A DNA stretch of 64,000 nt from a virus (Duplodnaviria; Caudoviricetes): positions 13,459-77,458 of the IMG/VR virus record IMGVR_UViG_2922715855_000002. One strand, 5' to 3'. Positions 12,101 through 52,345 of this stretch are shown piece after piece. The notes below the pieces were generated by a model. It had not been told where the DNA came from. It made no database searches and saw only the letters and a program-made list of their open reading frames with translations. Positions within the stretch are counted from its first letter, which is position 1, and each line of letters begins with the position of its first letter. The translations under genes were made by a program, and so were the position numbers.

Positions 12101-14203
12101 AAGATTTATAAAGTGGCTGATGGTTGGAAGTTTGAGACTGGCGCGGTGGACATCCTTCGCAAAGCGAAGATCCAAAAAGCGATTGATGATTTGAAATCCG
12201 AGCAAGATTCTCAATTTAATACCAAGGTAGCAACCGATGCTCGGTTGCAGTCTTATGGGATTGAAGCTCAAGCGATTAAGAGTCTAGCAGACCTCAAAGC
12301 TAAATTAAATAGCGCTCGAACTAACGATCTAAGCTCCGGTGACGACTTAAAATACTTCAAACCTGCCTTTAAACAACAAGGGCTTGGTGTCATGGGAGCG
12401 AAAGAAGCCGCTGAATCCGATTTGGATAGCATCCTGAATGAGTATGAAAAGGATATGAAGGCTTATGACGATAAAATCAAGTCACTTTCTAAGTTATACA
12501 ATGATCCGAAGTTTGGTGTTTCTAAAGACAGTTCCAAAGAAAAATCCAAAAGCAAAAAGGATGATCCGTTAGCGAAGGCGTTTGATGCTTCGTCGAAATA
12601 TATAGAACATCAAAAGGCGATTGGTAAGTTGAATACCAGTCAAGAATTAACAGCGTGGCAGCGCGTCCAGTCCCAATATGCTCAAGGGACCGAACAGCGC
12701 ATGAAAGCAGATGAGAAAGTCTATGCCTTGAAGAAAACTCTATCGGATGAAGCGCAAAAGAAAGAGAAAGAAGCCTATAACGCTTCGATAAATTGGATTT
12801 CGCATCAAAAAGGAATCCGTGAGGTCTCAGCAGCGCAAGAGCTTGATATGTTGTTGCGTGTCCAATCACGATATAAAGTTGGTTCGGAAGAACGAATGCA
12901 GCTTGACGAGAAAGTTTATGCTGCTCGTAAGGCGAAGGACCAGGAGTATTTCGCTGACTTTCAAAGGCAGCTCTCGCACAAGAAAGCGATGGAACAAATA
13001 AGCACCGAGGATGAAATCAAAGCTTGGATCAAGATACAGGGGATGTACAAAGAAGGCACAGACCAACGGATGCAAGCCGATGAACAGTTATATACCTTGA
13101 AAAAGAAATTGCTTGATGATGAACAAAAAGCCGTGGGCGACTACACGAAGACCACTAAAACGATCTTAGATCAATCGAAGAACGACGCCATTAAGCGCAT
13201 TGAAGAAGAACGTGACGCATTTCTTGCATCCCAGGATTTGAAAATCAAAGCTATCGACGATGAAATTAAGAAGATGGACGAAGCTAATAACATCGATGAT
13301 TATGAACGTGCCTTAGCGGAGAAGAAAGCAAGGCTCGAACTATTGCAATCCGCTGTTGGTCCGGAAGGAATCAAGGAACGCGAACAAGTCCAAAAAGATA
13401 TCGAGGAAATGGAGCGTAAACACCAACGAGAGCAAGCGAAGAAAAGTCTCGAAGACCAGAAACAGCAATTACAGGATGAGAAAACGCAGAAGGAGAATGA
13501 TTATAACGATCAGATCCAGAAAACGAAAGAACATTATGATCAATTATCCAATGCGTTCGATACCTTCTCGTCACAAATTGAGTTTAAAGCCGAAGACTTG
13601 AAACAACTTCAAATCTTGAAGGAGTCTGAGAAGAATGAAGAGATCCTTAAACAACTGGATCAATTCATCTTGGATTATCAAGCAAGAATGGGCAAAATTA
13701 GTTCCGTATCGGCTTCCATTTCTCAAAGAGAGCTAGATTTACAAGAATACAATAGCAACAAAGACGCCTTCGATGCTGCAAAGGCTCGGGGTGATCAAGC
13801 GGAGATGGCGCGCTTATCGTCAAGGAATCAACAAATTCGTGATCAGTATGGCATAAAACAGGATACAGGTAAGCTTCAACACTTCAAAAATGGCGGCTTG
13901 GTACAAGGTCAGCGTGGGGAAGCTGTTCCGGTCGTTGCTCATGCAGGAGAAATGTTCCTGAATGAATCGCAACAGGGGGTGCTATTCAAACTATTGAATT
14001 TCAACTTTCCACAATTAAGCTTCTCGATGCCGCAGTTCTCCATGAATTCAGGTAGCGGCCAATCTGTAACCAATTATAATTATTATTCTGTTTCATCGGG
14101 TGATGTGCATATCTCTGATGATTCTACAGCCCGAACATTCTGGTCGGAAAAAGATAATCTTGTGCGGAGGATGCAATCCAAGGGAGGGAAAAGGAAAGCA
14201 TGA
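9191..14203 (+). CDS. Tape measure protein (1670 aa)
   Basis: Long helical ORF; TP901-like TMP core (...GENLGNMWKTVL...); coiled coils; C-terminal GGLV...AVPVVAHAGE motif. Confidence 0.9.
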   Translation: MTELNKDVVGAKINLDVTKILPAFKAIDEGARGNAASFQSLNAELAITQKNFASMGSAADKFALTSEERRKKILAESEALIKQRLAQTELINAKKNQLDQTNNIVESKLKAQQAIVKKREDAIEQQEREHQLKMAALQQKTSAASGLDNLMQAKIDRQFQIMKNGDAKLEMEAERHAAKMQILNQSALSPTKQTQPLVSSENIFGRIEKYAEHAVVFHTITTAINTAQHALKEGLVGIETNMAGYVQTNEHYFLEYNAGTKEMVMNTEKLHDETTKFLHTAHDLGSEIMDVTESARLWGRMYKDVNVVQELVRQSTALSTVDMVELEASTKSMESVMAQYAVHIQNANDAMVIGNRVLDSWSKVAHDTMAPARDLGAAFERTGKIAAETGVSFDFMNGLISTGIRNTALSGENLGNMWKTVLGTIRTEKAVNEIERLGVKTTELVDGTEQWRKAEDILLDLSTKVIDKNYDLTQSYADISRGVYQFAKLAASLNAGDILLGTATSIGSTGSTMEYLKVQMDTIQRKAAQAKASLLEVFNNAGDDGLRRSIKDVLDVIDRLLIGLTKLPKGTLEVAAGIGGLIVVTKSLQGVLNLTSGAIAALSAIKSKNTIATVANTAATVANTTTNQANVVATEGVILSTVSRTAATEGASLAQTTLSTTTKGAAVATGILTTAQAALSVTMAAATAGLSLVMAGLAAFAFMSGKAEKAERDRIQAMKDEDSASQQMISQYERQIELLPKLVNAHVSLENSLKSGTFSSEKQIQVKKQLDEVSKALVVTLGEEGAKQLDAAKYTDEAVRIQIQALNDLIVKQQEARKNVLLDQQDEITKQQVDKQKELKKALKDLEDAQKTAYDPQYALVQVQAIEKLREKVQSLEKESHKLDDAMAGVSVQIGQLAVDSIDQFSGAAGKATESVKDQEDALSYLRDEIKDNTSAISELNQVSHDLSKGQSMNAESATELILKYPQLADKIYKVADGWKFETGAVDILRKAKIQKAIDDLKSEQDSQFNTKVATDARLQSYGIEAQAIKSLADLKAKLNSARTNDLSSGDDLKYFKPAFKQQGLGVMGAKEAAESDLDSILNEYEKDMKAYDDKIKSLSKLYNDPKFGVSKDSSKEKSKSKKDDPLAKAFDASSKYIEHQKAIGKLNTSQELTAWQRVQSQYAQGTEQRMKADEKVYALKKTLSDEAQKKEKEAYNASINWISHQKGIREVSAAQELDMLLRVQSRYKVGSEERMQLDEKVYAARKAKDQEYFADFQRQLSHKKAMEQISTEDEIKAWIKIQGMYKEGTDQRMQADEQLYTLKKKLLDDEQKAVGDYTKTTKTILDQSKNDAIKRIEEERDAFLASQDLKIKAIDDEIKKMDEANNIDDYERALAEKKARLELLQSAVGPEGIKEREQVQKDIEEMERKHQREQAKKSLEDQKQQLQDEKTQKENDYNDQIQKTKEHYDQLSNAFDTFSSQIEFKAEDLKQLQILKESEKNEEILKQLDQFILDYQARMGKISSVSASISQRELDLQEYNSNKDAFDAAKARGDQAEMARLSSRNQQIRDQYGIKQDTGKLQHFKNGGLVQGQRGEAVPVVAHAGEMFLNESQQGVLFKLLNFNFPQLSFSMPQFSMNSGSGQSVTNYNYYSVSSGDVHISDDSTARTFWSEKDNLVRRMQSKGGKRKA

Positions 14204-48265: not shown

Positions 48266-48574
48266 ATGTTTAAACAAAAGAACTTTACAACTAAAGCAGG
48301 AAATAAATTTGTATTCCAACATCCAGGTGTGCGGATGGTATCCAAGATCAATGACGCCAGTAAAAACAAGCATGGCGTTGTATCGGAGGAACGGCTTGCA
48401 GAAGAAATGTTAAAGCACGTGGTTGTTGATCCAAAAATGAAAATCGATGATTTCACTAATTACAAGGAGTACAGCGAAGTAATTAATTCCGCATATGCTT
48501 TTATTTCCGGTCAATCAGACGGTGGTGAGGAAGACAATGACAATCAGCAAGAAGGAAGCGAAACGGAGGGCTAA
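48266..48574 (+). CDS. Tail assembly chaperone
   Basis: Between tube and TMP. Confidence 0.7.
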   Translation: MFKQKNFTTKAGNKFVFQHPGVRMVSKINDASKNKHGVVSEERLAEEMLKHVVVDPKMKIDDFTNYKEYSEVINSAYAFISGQSDGGEEDNDNQQEGSETEG

Positions 48575-48725
48575 GGAACGTTGGTTCCAATGGCGGATAC
48601 TGCTTTCTGATATGAATATCACATACGCGGATTTAATGCTCATGGATGATGATGATCTTGCGGAAGCAAACGCCGCACTTGATATTCATATCGAACAGCA
48701 ACAAAAAGAAATGAATAAGAAGTAA
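48537..48725 (+). CDS. Second tail chaperone
   Basis: GGTGAGG RBS; MDDDDLAEANAALD motif. Confidence 0.65.
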   Translation: MTISKKEAKRRAKERWFQWRILLSDMNITYADLMLMDDDDLAEANAALDIHIEQQQKEMNKK

Positions 48726-48762: not shown

Positions 48763-49425
48763 GTGGTGAGGTATTTGGGTGTAATCGGTAACCTGATGTT
48801 TGCCGTTGGCTTCAAAGTCGGCGATAGTGCGCTGAAAAAGGTCGATAAGCAAATGACCGGGTTGAAAGATAATTGGACAAAAGTCGGAATCGCGACCGCT
48901 GCGGTGGGGACGGCAATTATTGGCGTTGGTGTTGCGGCGTTATCAGCTTCAAGTGATTTCAATAAATCTATGGCATCTATTCAAATGGCAACCGGACAAA
49001 CTGCGGATCAAATGGAAGCGACGAAGGATGTCGCTAAAAATCTGTATAAACAGAATTTCGGCGAGAATTGGCAATTACTCAGTGATGCGATAGCGGTAAC
49101 GACTCAAATTACACAGCAGCACGGTAAGGAACTCGAAAACACAACGCGTAACGCCTTGCTATTCCAGGAGGCATTCAAAAAGGATATTCCCGAATCCATC
49201 AAAACTACGGATACCATGATGAGGCAATTTGGGATTACGAGTGATGATTCCTTTAATCTTCTGGCTCAAGGACAGCAGAAAGGGTTGGATAAGTCCGGCG
49301 AGCTGCTAGATACAGCGAATGAATACGCCAATCAGTTTAAAGCGCTTGGGTTCTCTGCTGATGAAATGTTCGACACATTGGCAGCCGGGTCTGAGAACGG
49401 CGCGTTCAATTTAGATAAAGTGGGT
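48763..49425 (+). CDS. Tape measure protein, exon 1
   Basis: TMP sequence ends ...GAFNLDKVG (GGT) at 49425. Confidence 0.9.
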
Positions 49426-50791
49426 TATACGGCTCACTATAAACTCCTCTATTTGCTGGGACGTCTTATGTTGATATTAAATCAAATCATATGTAAAAGA
49501 ATTTGTTTGATATAATACATTTAACAAGATAATCAGCAGGGAAGCTTTTTGGGAGGGACTAATTTTGTTTGATATTTACGTCATTAGAAATATCATTAAC
49601 GAGAAAAAATATATCGGTTACACCTCGAAAGGATATAAAACGAGATTTAGACTTCATATAAAGGAAGCATATGAAGGAAATACTTCGCGTTACCTTTGTA
49701 AAGCCATTCGCAAATATGGTAAAGAAAATTTCACCGTTGAATTACTTGAAACCGTTGAGACTCATGAGCTTGCAGTAGAGAAAGAAATCTACTATATCCA
49801 AAAAATGAACACCTTTGCTCATAAAAAAGGAAGCCATGGATATAATGCAACACTCGGCGGGGAAGGTGTAAACGGTAAGTTAGTTCCCCAAAGTATGAGA
49901 GACAAGATGAGTAAAATAAAAAAGGACCAGTTAGCTTGGGTCGGTAAAAATAATCCTATGTATAAGAAGGGGTATTTGATTGCCGGAGATAAGCATCCTT
50001 TGTTTGGAAAGAATCATTCATCTGAAACAAAATCAAAAATAAGTCAGTCAAATAAAGGACGACATATTGGGATTAATAACCCTGCTTCTAAGCTGACCGA
50101 ATGTTACTCTCTTGAGTGTAAAACAGGAAAAATTGAAATGTTCAGTAGTTTTTATGAAATGCAGCAGTTTTTCATTAGCTTGGGGATGAAGTTGAATAGA
50201 AGTATCGTACTAGGTATTATGCGAATGGATAAAGGTAAGAAAAGCTACAAAAGATATAAGTTTTTTCGAGAAGACGTTACACCGAATGATATTTTTTCGG
50301 AAATAAGACGTAAATATCAAATGAAAATCTTTGAGCCCATAGAATTAAAGGATCATAGGCAAGGTGAAGAACACCCGAAAGCCAAAAATATGATATGTTT
50401 TGCTAGTGAGATTTCAACAGGAAAGATATATAGATTTGAATCATGGTATGAATTGAAAAGAGGACTCGGAATAATTACAGGTAAAGAAATTACATACTCT
50501 AGCCTCTTTAAAGTTCTCACTGGTAAATATAAACAAACGACAGGATATCATGTTTTTAGGGAGGATATTACCGAAAAGTCAACATTCAGTGCCATATCCG
50601 ATAATTATGAAATCCAAAAAGAACCTTCAACGACTAGCCGAGAGGCGTAGGGCGCAAGCTATTGGCGTTCGAAACGGGGAGCATCCAAGCTCTCTTTTTT
50701 TATGCTTGGGTGAAGATATAGTCTGGTCTGCATGGAAACATGCAGCAGCCAAAAGGCGGTACAGAAATAGCGAATCTGTACGAACAAAACG
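49426..50791 (+). ncRNA. Group I self-splicing intron (IA-like, 1366 nt) in the tape measure gene
   Basis: U before 5' splice site paired to G in P1; P, Q, R (TTCAACGACTA 50626), S (AAGATATAGTCT 50713); P3, P7, P8, P9; terminal G 50791; frame restored. Confidence 0.93.
49565..50650 (+). CDS. Intron-encoded GIY-YIG homing endonuclease
   Basis: DIYVIRN..KKYIGYT, YNATLGGEG, NUMOD3-like HPLFGKNHSSETKSKIS, two C-terminal repeats; GGGAGG RBS. Confidence 0.9.
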   Translation: MFDIYVIRNIINEKKYIGYTSKGYKTRFRLHIKEAYEGNTSRYLCKAIRKYGKENFTVELLETVETHELAVEKEIYYIQKMNTFAHKKGSHGYNATLGGEGVNGKLVPQSMRDKMSKIKKDQLAWVGKNNPMYKKGYLIAGDKHPLFGKNHSSETKSKISQSNKGRHIGINNPASKLTECYSLECKTGKIEMFSSFYEMQQFFISLGMKLNRSIVLGIMRMDKGKKSYKRYKFFREDVTPNDIFSEIRRKYQMKIFEPIELKDHRQGEEHPKAKNMICFASEISTGKIYRFESWYELKRGLGIITGKEITYSSLFKVLTGKYKQTTGYHVFREDITEKSTFSAISDNYEIQKEPSTTSREA

Positions 50792-52345
50792 GATGCCGTC
50801 AAAGAATTTAATATCCGTTCAAAGGACGGAAGCAAGACATCGATGGAAGCTTTTGAAATGCTTGGATTGAATGCTGATAAGCTGATGCATACGTTCGCCG
50901 CGGGTGGACCCCAAGCCAAGCAAGCATTTACACAGATCATGCAAATGATCGGCGATGTTGAGGACCCTGTTGCCCGAAATACGATCGGGGTCGCTTTGAT
51001 GGGTTCGCAATTCGAGGATTTAGAAGTTAAGACGATTACCGCCATGGGTAGTGCAAGGACGCAGTTTGATATGACGATTGACAAGATGAGCGAATTAAAT
51101 CAAATCAAGTTCAATTCGCCAGGAGAGGCAGCAGCGCGGATTGGGCGGCAGCTTAAAACCAATTTGATCATTCCGATAGGCGATAAACTTCTTCCCTACC
51201 TTACACAGTTTTCGGTATGGATGGAAAATGCCGGACCACAAATTCAAAAGGTAGGCGGGGCACTTATTGACGGTATAGCAAAAGGTATTAATGCCGTTGT
51301 AGATGGCGTGAAATATCTTGTTGACAATATCGATGTTATTGGTCCAGCTCTGGGGGGATTTGCAACCGTCATTTTGATTGCGTTAGTACCTGCAATGTGG
51401 GCATGGGTAACAGCTCAATACGCTTCGGCTGCCGCAGGTTGGGCGGCTATTGCTCCGTGGCTTCCCGTCATCGGCTTGGCTCTATTGGTTGCCGCAGCAA
51501 TCACGGGTGTAATATTAGTTTTCAAGAATTGGGGAGCTATTAGCACATGGTTGGTCAATGTGTGGAACAATTTTAAAACGTGGGTTATGAATATATTCAA
51601 TAGCATTATCCAATTTTTCAAAACTTGGGGTACAACGATTCTGGTGGTTCTTGGTGGTCCGATTGTGTGGGCTGTTGCGCTTGTAGTGAAGTACTGGAAG
51701 CAAATCAAGACATTCACCATATCTATATTTACGAGTATTGGGAATTGGTTGTCATCGACTTGGAATCAAATAACTTCGAGTGTGTCTAACTCAGTCACAA
51801 ATATATGGACAAAGATAAAAGAAATATGGGACCGGATCATAGGATTCCTTAAAGGCATTAACTTGTTCGATATCGGCAAGAACATCATCGAGGGTTTGGT
51901 GAACGGAATTGGTTCCATGGCGAATGCAGTCGTGGATAGGGTAAAGGATATTGGGAATAGCATCACCGATAAGGTCAAGGGGATTCTAGGTATTCATTCG
52001 CCTTCGCGAGTCATGATGGAAATGGGGGTTTATACCGGGGAAGGGTTAGCCCTGGGGATTGATAGCACGCAAAACCGCGTTGGCGAAGCATCGGCAAGTT
52101 TAGCGAATGAAGTAAAGGGTCAACCCGCCTATGTAAAAACCACGGCACCAGCTCCGGCGAGAGTTGTTTCTTCAAGCGCTTCATCATCGTCACGAATTGA
52201 TTTGAGTATTGCCGTTAAAGTTGATGGAAGTGGATCAAATGAAAAAATGGGTAGTGATATAGCCTTACAGGTCAAACAACAAGTGCAAGAAATACTAGAA
52301 AGCACGATTCGTCGTATGGGGCTAACTCCTGAGGTGGTCGAGTAG
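50792..52345 (+). CDS. Tape measure protein, exon 2
   Basis: Begins DAVKEFNIRSKDGS; C-terminal LGIHSPSRVM. Confidence 0.9.
   Translation, partial: DAVKEFNIRSKDGSKTSMEAFEMLGLNADKLMHTFAAGGPQAKQAFTQIMQMIGDVEDPVARNTIGVALMGSQFEDLEVKTITAMGSARTQFDMTIDKMSELNQIKFNSPGEAAARIGRQLKTNLIIPIGDKLLPYLTQFSVWMENAGPQIQKVGGALIDGIAKGINAVVDGVKYLVDNIDVIGPALGGFATVILIALVPAMWAWVTAQYASAAAGWAAIAPWLPVIGLALLVAAAITGVILVFKNWGAISTWLVNVWNNFKTWVMNIFNSIIQFFKTWGTTILVVLGGPIVWAVALVVKYWKQIKTFTISIFTSIGNWLSSTWNQITSSVSNSVTNIWTKIKEIWDRIIGFLKGINLFDIGKNIIEGLVNGIGSMANAVVDRVKDIGNSITDKVKGILGIHSPSRVMMEMGVYTGEGLALGIDSTQNRVGEASASLANEVKGQPAYVKTTAPAPARVVSSSASSSSRIDLSIAVKVDGSGSNEKMGSDIALQVKQQVQEILESTIRRMGLTPEVVE

Follow-up and report, generated by a model that had tools for sequence, protein, structure and literature searches.

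A GIY-YIG endonuclease-bearing group I intron in the tape measure gene of a tailed virus and its relatives in Paenibacillus and Brevibacillus prophages

The sequence analyzed in this study, hereafter the window, is a whole stretch of 64,000 nucleotides (nt) covering positions 13,459 to 77,458 of the IMG/VR virus record IMGVR_UViG_2922715855_000002 (Duplodnaviria; Caudoviricetes). It includes a contractile-tail module in which the gene for the tape measure protein (TMP) is divided into two exons by a group I intron, and the intron itself contains the gene for a homing endonuclease. An earlier note made from the sequence letters had proposed that a group I intron interrupts the TMP gene at 49425/50792, and this was borne out by a match to Rfam, by covariation among related introns and by the existence of intronless homologues. 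The end of exon 1, the guide, P3, P4, P7, P8, the GAAA loop of P9 and the terminal guanosine (omega-G) had all been given correctly there. The description was sound as to the parts of the ribozyme and incomplete as to the intron, most of which is filled by a 361-amino-acid (aa) GIY-YIG endonuclease that had been omitted. The features are listed in Table 1, and all positions are those of the window unless a relative is named.

The divided tape measure gene and its junction

The product of exon 1 was matched to the PhageMin_Tail domain (Pfam PF10145, E 6.9e-14). The likelier start of the gene is TTG 48775; from it the called protein P0004 opens with MGVIGN, as its homologues do. Exon 1 ends with ...GATAAAGTGGGT at 49425, reading AAT TTA GAT AAA GTG GGT, and past this point its frame continues for 29 unrelated codons to a TAA at 49513. 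Exon 2 matches the intronless TMPs of relatives from its residue 1. When 49425 is joined to 50792, the translation runs ...NLDKVG followed directly by DAVKEFNIRSKDGS and is free of stops, giving 738 aa from GTG 48763, in keeping with the product of about 738 aa that the earlier note had calculated from this start, or 734 aa from TTG 48775. The identification as a TMP is based on the PhageMin_Tail domain, the location after the tail chaperone genes and a transmembrane-like hydrophobic middle.

The position of the junction was obtained in three ways. In the PHROG tape measure profiles, the match to exon 1 stops and that to exon 2 sets in at neighbouring positions, namely 414 and 415 of phrog_5218, 401 and 402 of phrog_2337, and again 414 and 415 of phrog_1272. 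The intronless alleles that had been suggested as a check were found, and the TMPs L003, L004 and L006, and likewise L005 and L009, align across the junction without a gap; their common pattern is ...DK[VI][GA]/D[AS][VI]KEF..., where the slash marks the junction, and one example reads ...GAFSLDKVA followed by DSVKEFNIRSKDGS... The rules for group I introns select the same bonds, with U 49425 paired to G 49432 at the 5' splice site and a terminal G at 50791. On the agreement of these three independent lines, the predicted junction 49425/50792 is exact. The insertion falls between two codons (Gly and Asp) inside the PhageMin_Tail domain of the TMP, which is that of a myovirus-type prophage. The gene order of the contractile-tail module around the TMP is normal, and no other gene there looks broken.

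Intron structure and its conservation among relatives

The G+C content of the intron is 35.5%, compared with 45-46% in the exons, and its layout consists of about 140 nt of non-coding sequence, the 361-codon gene and about 140 nt of further non-coding sequence. The 5' part of the ribozyme, comprising P1 and P3-P6, occupies 49420-49552, and the 3' core, from P6' to P9.2, occupies 50614-50781. The two non-coding parts were joined with the gene removed and were folded by unconstrained minimum-free-energy folding, by which P1, P3, P4, a long P5, P6, P8, P9, P9.1 and P9.2 were recovered. The group I core is present as P3-P8 with the P7 pseudoknot and with J8/7 and J6/7 in their consensus form. Between P7 and P3' there is a 36-nt insert that forms P7.1 and P7.2, and P9.1 and P9.2 are present as well; P7.1 and P7.2 at this place are the signature of subgroup IA, to which the intron belongs. 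The read-through of exon 1 (49426-49515) crosses the 5' strands of P1, P3 and P4 and half of P5, and the introns of the relatives L031 and L032, unlike that of the window, open with an in-frame TAA.

A comparison with the Rfam model Intron_gpI (RF00028), which the earlier note had recommended, was carried out at the gathering score of 50 bits. The window was matched at 50392-50745 with 51.1 bits (E 4.8e-10); Intron_gpI was the sole Rfam family found in the 64 kb, and this was the sole such match in the 6.9-Mb genome. The credible part of the alignment comprises only J6/7, P7, P3', P8, J8/7, P7' and P9, and since the true 5' part is situated 1.1 kb further upstream, the corresponding part of the model was aligned by force to codons of the endonuclease gene. 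Identity of the 3' core to known phage introns, among them the bnrdE intron of SPbeta and the terminase intron of rV5-like coliphages, is 71-74%, and the 5' part of the intron found no match among isolated phages.

The exon 1 read-through product was used as the query in a search for relatives and returned 37 short 'tape measure' proteins from Paenibacillus, Brevibacillus and metagenomes. In about 30 of the 37, homology is lost at or a few codons before ...GAFNLDKVG, after which one of a handful of distinct tails follows; the class of tails beginning with YTAH... corresponds to the window's intron. The statement of the earlier note that such introns are uncommon in structural genes was thus overstated, one search having met with about 30 database clusters in which a TMP fragment breaks off at this codon or beside it. 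Its remark that standard annotation would take this TMP for broken was borne out, and exon 1 read-through products of 225-253 aa carry the name 'phage tail tape measure protein' at NCBI.

A family alignment was built from the window's intron and nine others at the same TMP bond, which were reached through the short TMPs and through homologues of the endonuclease. One is from Brevibacillus laterosporus (L014, 291 nt, without an endonuclease gene), two are metagenomic (L015 and L030), one is from Paenibacillus sp. FJAT-26967 (L016), three are from public assemblies of sequencing runs or metagenomes (L031, L032 and L035), one is from P. pabuli (L033) and one is from a prophage remnant in which exon 1 has been lost (L034). 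Scans with exact 20-mers gave few members and two chance matches, L017 (a Pseudobutyrivibrio coding sequence) and L021 (unrelated), which were rejected; L018 and L019 are duplicates of L016, and L020 is a duplicate of L030. The nuclease-less L014 scored 76.5 bits over the entire Intron_gpI model, so that the family is unambiguous once the inserted gene is absent.

Covariation in the 3' domain was pronounced. Across the ten introns, 98% of cells pair, compared with 27-38% when the partners are slid by one to three columns; two-sided changes occur in 20 of the 40 pairs, and the observed values were matched in none of 500 shuffles. P7 and J8/7 are invariant, and compensatory changes are present in P7.1, P7.2, P8, P9, P9.1 and P9.2. 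In the 5' part, P1 is a helix of 6 base pairs with an invariant U.G pair (10/10 introns), and in L035 a single G-C to C-G swap tracks the change of a Val codon to a Leu codon in the exon. These six pairs, with the U.G at the splice site, are what stands of the P1 drawn in the earlier note, whose seventh pair (A-T, guide 49432-38) is not conserved. All six pairs of P3 are kept in every one of the ten introns, with two compensatory swaps in L033 and L034; P4 is invariant except for one change from G.U to G-C; the P5 arm folds into a long hairpin in every family member; and in P6a, which spans the endonuclease gene, pairing is kept with a sequence that differs in almost every member. The omega-G is invariant (10/10).

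Table 1. Positions of the tape measure exons, the intron and its parts, and the neighbouring tail genes in the window
Feature	Position	Strand	Description
TMP exon 1	48775..49425	+	N-terminal portion of PhageMin_Tail domain; longest frame from GTG 48763
Group I intron, subgroup IA	49426..50791	+	1366 nt
P1	49420..49437	+	exon GTGGGT (49420-25) paired with guide GCTCAC (49432-37); 6-nt loop TATACG; U.G pair 49425/49432
P3, 5' strand	49444..49449	+	CTCCTC; partner GGGGAG (50676-50681)
P4 and P5 arm	49454..49538	+	P4, TGCTGG (49454-59) with TCAGCA (49533-38); extended P5 hairpin (49463-49530) inside
Degenerate homing-site copy, P5 apex	49493..49516	+	GTAAAAGAATTT (49493-49504), then TGATATAAT (49508-16)
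P6/P6a, 5' strand	49539..49552	+	partner 50614-50625, spanning 1.06-kb loop with endonuclease gene
Homing endonuclease gene	49565..50650	+	361 aa, TTG start; GGGAGGG 7 nt upstream; within P6 loop
3' ribozyme domain	50614..50781	+	by Rfam alignment, covariation and identity to phage introns
P6'	50614-25
J6/7	50626-31
P7	50632-36		GACTA; with P7' TAGTC (50719-23)
P7.1	50637-46		GCC-GAGA-GGC, GAGA loop
P7.2	50650-70
P3'	50676-81
P8	50682-712
J8/7	50713-18
P9	50728-45		GAAA loop
P9.1	50748-57
P9.2	50759-81
omega-G	50791	+	final intron base; agrees with protein junction
TMP exon 2	50792..52345	+	517 aa plus stop; opens GAT GCC GTC AAA GAA TTT
Tail terminator	46348		contractile-tail module
Sheath	46832		contractile-tail module
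Tube	47853		contractile-tail module
Two overlapping chaperone frames	48266-48574 and 48495-48725		contractile-tail module
Hub	53145		contractile-tail module
Wedge	54692		contractile-tail module

The endonuclease, its mobility and the homing-site copy in P5

The endonuclease is composed of a GIY-YIG catalytic domain, a NUMOD3 motif and a repeated C-terminal module (Pfam PF01541 and PF07460) and was also matched to the homing endonuclease families of PHROG. Its family profile matches the catalytic domain of I-TevI (1MK0/1LN0, E 4e-6). Ten homologues, all of full length and 43-62% identical, were collected, and the catalytic positions Y16, R27, H31, E74 and N94 are invariant among them. Six further homologues were placed on DNA, of which five follow directly after a PhageMin_Tail fragment and the sixth is the remnant L034. 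The relatives of the endonuclease in IMG/VR reach only 31-39% identity.

The last nine codons of the gene, EPSTTSREA, together with its stop (50624-50650) are read from P6', J6/7, P7 and P7.1, and by this overlay of the gene on the predicted fold its 3' end doubles as protein code and ribozyme core. EPSTTSREA is conserved in the homologues because the RNA is conserved. The stop codon TAG lies inside an invariant GGCGTAG between P7.1 and P7.2. At the other end of the gene, the Shine-Dalgarno sequence GGGAGGG (49551-49557) overlaps the last two pairs of P6a, a pairing that reaches further in L016 and L030, and through this overlap ribozyme folding may hold down the translation of the endonuclease.

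The intron family was found in the TMPs of differing tail modules, with an E217-type sheath in the window, a P2-type tube and gpD, and a siphovirus Dit. Identities amount to 47-56% for exon 1 and 59-62% for the endonuclease, and the mean column identity of the ribozyme 3' domain is 77%. The variety of tail modules, together with an intron that is more conserved than its host gene, points to mobility and fits horizontal spread by homing. Exon 1 of the intron-bearing alleles ends with GGT, the U of which is needed for P1, except in the remnant L034 (GAT), and at the same codon the intronless alleles have GCA, GGC, GCG or GGG. The endonuclease would most likely cut intronless alleles near the junction; the indirect signs of this are the one site used in unrelated tail modules and the GTGGGT shared by the intron-bearing alleles.

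A degenerate copy of the homing site was identified at the apex of P5. Its first segment, GTAAAAGAATTT, is identical to bases 50798-50809 of exon 2 at 11 of 12 positions, which is not significant alone in the window, and the window's copy matches the family consensus at 12 of 21 bases. Each of the nine nuclease-bearing members has a copy of the intronless junction, in the same sense, at its P5 apex; the copy lies 51-66 nt from the beginning of the intron, and the endonuclease gene starts about 60 nt after it. It follows the pattern GGN GAY GCN RTN AAA GAR TTT, with a nearly invariant core T-AAAGA-TT. The copy of L016 agrees with the window's spliced junction at 21/21 positions and with its own junction at 18/21 (0 of 2000 shuffles), and the own-junction matches of L030, L015 and L032 are 17/21, 16/21 and 15/21 (0, 4 and 1 of 2000 shuffles, respectively); only the 5' half is kept in the nuclease-less L014. 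A TAnnnT hexamer is conserved 4-8 nt after the copy, and in the window TGATATAAT resembles an extended -10 element. A consensus scan of the P5 loop found no sigma-70 -35/-10 promoter, and the extended -10 reading was made from the sequence alone.

This copy may be a putative operator in the style of I-TevI, which the endonuclease would bind and by which it would limit its own expression. We hold the chances to be roughly evenly divided between such an operator and a copy that is no site for the enzyme, being either a leftover of the recombination that brought in the endonuclease gene or simply material of the P5 stem. An origin of the latter kind agrees with the RNA folds, in which this stretch is folded up as the P5 hairpin, its -10-like bases being paired to the copy's 5' half, with the missing -35/-10 promoter, with the degeneracy of the window's copy, and with the moderate correlation between the variable positions of target and copy (rho 0.54, in sequences that are not independent). 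It fits less well with a copy that is found at one and the same place throughout the nine nuclease-bearing members, despite nuclease identities of only 43-62%, that keeps its core nearly invariant and that has lost its 3' half in the nuclease-less L014, and a proven precedent for an operator is available in I-TevI of T4 (PMC2988022). If the operator interpretation is true, the P5 loop would serve as RNA structure and DNA operator at once.

Splicing, known introns and the insertion hotspot

From the anatomy, the conserved fold, the junction, the intact genes and the spread of the family described above, we infer catalysis, homing and a dependence of assembly on splicing, and regard it as highly probable that this group I intron is functional and mobile and that tail assembly depends on it. 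That the ribozyme is active is very likely in view of the intronless alleles, the covariation and the intact nuclease-less relative. Upon transcription of the late tail operon, P1 would pair the last six exon bases with the guide sequence, P3 and P6 would bridge the 1.06-kb loop with the endonuclease gene, and the P7/P3/P8 core would bind guanosine. Two transesterifications would then join 49425 to 50792 and produce an mRNA for the 734-aa TMP. In an unspliced transcript, translation would end 29 codons into the intron, and no full-length TMP, hence no tail, would be made. Homing would follow from cleavage of an intronless allele near the junction by the GIY-YIG endonuclease and from repair that copies the intron in.

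Several observations weigh against this interpretation. P2 is absent, only 5 nt being found between P1 and P3, and the intron may be IA2-like or may belong to IA1 or IA3. P10 is weak or absent; the pairing ACGGC/GCCGT put forward in the earlier note is not conserved, L015 and L030 opening exon 2 with GATGGAAT, and no conserved alternative pairing was found in the family. Many group I introns can do without P10, so its lack is no bar to membership in group I. With the model broken up by the inserted gene, the Rfam score of the window is barely above the threshold. The in-frame stop comes 90 nt into the intron, so that ribosomes could traverse P1-P4 before the RNA folds, and in the published introns of the Bacillus cereus group a stop is met within 27 nt (PMC2504315). 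In addition, the genome contains a single copy of the intron and neither a second TMP of the same type nor an intronless target, and homing is therefore not inferable from within the genome.

Two other explanations were considered beside a functional intron. It appears improbable that the intron is a dead relic, in which the ribozyme would be inactive, the TMP in effect a pseudogene and the prophage without a tail. Prophages often decay, the relative L034 with its lost exon 1 being such a remnant, and the degenerate P5 copy of the window would suit decay; against this, all core helices of the window form standard pairs, the family-invariant positions are all kept, there are full-length open frames for both exons and for the endonuclease, and the neighbouring tail genes are intact. 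An explanation without any splicing, namely that a free-standing endonuclease gene split the TMP into two separately translated proteins that later assemble, is hardly credible. Gene callers and NCBI do annotate the pieces of the TMP as separate proteins, and an ATG at 50843 opens a frame of 500 aa, but the homology of exon 2 begins 17 codons before this first ATG and exactly at the omega-G. Moreover, the insertion has a complete covarying group I fold in which P1 uses the last six bases of the exon, and the 291-nt L014 at the same site has no nuclease gene to account for the split.

The window is an ordinary further example of TMP introns that have already been described. As the earlier note had stated, such introns are known from prophages of the Bacillus cereus group, where Tourasse and Kolsto (2008) found group I introns at three TMP sites (TMP-IVS1, IVS2, IVS3a and IVS3b; PMC2504315). 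These are in-frame introns of subgroups IA1/IA2, and IVS1 and IVS2 are similar to the nrdE intron of SPbeta (PMC2504315). The survey, which was computational, reported guide sequences re-targeted via P1 among related introns and different introns sharing one site; IVS3a was found to carry an H-N-H homing endonuclease, and the GIY-YIG example was a terminase intron (PMC2504315). The window's intron is like them in being an IA group I intron of a prophage TMP and, as with IVS1 and IVS2, in its resemblance to the nrdE intron of SPbeta. It differs in its relatives, which are those of Paenibacillus and Brevibacillus instead of the Bacillus cereus group, and in its nuclease, which is GIY-YIG whereas that of IVS3a is H-N-H. 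In a class-wide sample of 401 genomes, nrdE introns were present in one genus and no TMP intron was seen from the same genus. The P7-P9 core is 73% identical over about 140 nt to that of the SPbeta bnrdE intron, the record of which annotates bnrdE as intron-interrupted; the host gene in that case is a ribonucleotide reductase, and the 5' part is without detected similarity.

The td intron of T4 with I-TevI is also an IA intron with a GIY-YIG gene in the P6 loop and a homologous catalytic domain; it likewise encodes a modular enzyme, with a linker and a DNA-binding part, and has a homing-site look-alike upstream of the endonuclease gene in the intron. In T4 this operator is a 15/20 look-alike over the endonuclease promoter that is bound and poorly cleaved (PMC2988022). 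The window differs in that its host gene encodes a virion structural protein, that the DNA-binding part of its endonuclease has no detectable similarity to that of I-TevI, and that its look-alike, recognized here by sequence, is located in the apex of P5, with the start codon about 60 nt downstream. Group I introns inside virion structural genes are shared with the Cluster J mycobacteriophages, whose introns in capsid and minor tail genes are needed for assembly and have been shown experimentally to be spliced in late expression (PMC3706429); they differ from the case described here in host phylum, in the genes interrupted and in intron sequence. A literature search found no paper on tape measure introns of Paenibacillus or Brevibacillus.

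These results do not change what is known in principle. They add Paenibacillus and Brevibacillus prophages to the hosts of TMP introns, and the exact junction lets the pieces of split TMPs be joined in annotation. At present intron-split TMPs are filed as short 'tape measure proteins' or remain uncalled, by which intact prophages look defective. The ten covarying introns, the nuclease-less form and the graded copies of the target also provide material for probing self-repression of the I-TevI style outside T4.

A second family of insertions was found at the same TMP bond in other Brevibacillus and Paenibacillus prophages (L038:3646-3874 and L039:3649-3875, 227-229 nt). These have their own P1, in which exon GTCGGT pairs with guide GCCGAC and a U.G is placed at the site, and a terminal G. 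A clearly related insertion in a plasmid prophage of Bacillus thuringiensis (L037:4703-4930), the sole B. thuringiensis insertion compared, lies 71 codons downstream of the window's site, with the guide changed to match. The predicted fold has as its only support the compensatory changes in 19 of 55 pairs of a three-sequence RNAalifold, and Rfam RF00028 gave no match to L038 or L039 (E up to 1) or to L037 (E up to 0.1). This family probably represents the IA1-type TMP introns of the B. cereus literature. In Paenibacillus uliginis, an intron with an Rfam score of 79.7 bits (L040:3766-3980) is inserted 13 nt upstream of the window's site, after ...AACCT. Its 3' domain resembles the window's intron family, and several database proteins with tails FIRALWW... 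show the same site.

By these sequence comparisons the Gly/Asp boundary is a hotspot at which one codon boundary serves at least two ribozyme families, and a second site is used 13 nt upstream. It can tentatively be proposed, as a joint statement that we hold to be possible and somewhat doubtful, that this boundary is contested by three intron lineages in Paenibacillus and Brevibacillus prophages and that the P5 target copy of the nuclease-bearing one acts as an I-TevI-like operator. The lineages in question would be the IA family with or without a nuclease, the related IA intron re-targeted 13 nt upstream, and the unrelated ribozyme of about 230 nt.

Some minor observations were made on the tail modules. 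The overlapping frames 48266-48574/48495-48725 of the window occupy the usual place of tail assembly chaperones made via programmed frameshift. In the decayed prophage L034 (L034:2250-3716), exon 1 is reduced to a few codons, and the intron, an intact endonuclease gene and exon 2 remain beside an Imm44-family gene; 7 sequences belong to the cluster of its endonuclease, and the remnant is therefore no isolated case. On a Bacillus mycoides plasmid (L036:3770-5392), the TMP of a related prophage is truncated and is followed on the opposite strand by pesticidal crystal protein genes, an arrangement that suggests that the tail module was cut through the insertion of a toxin island.

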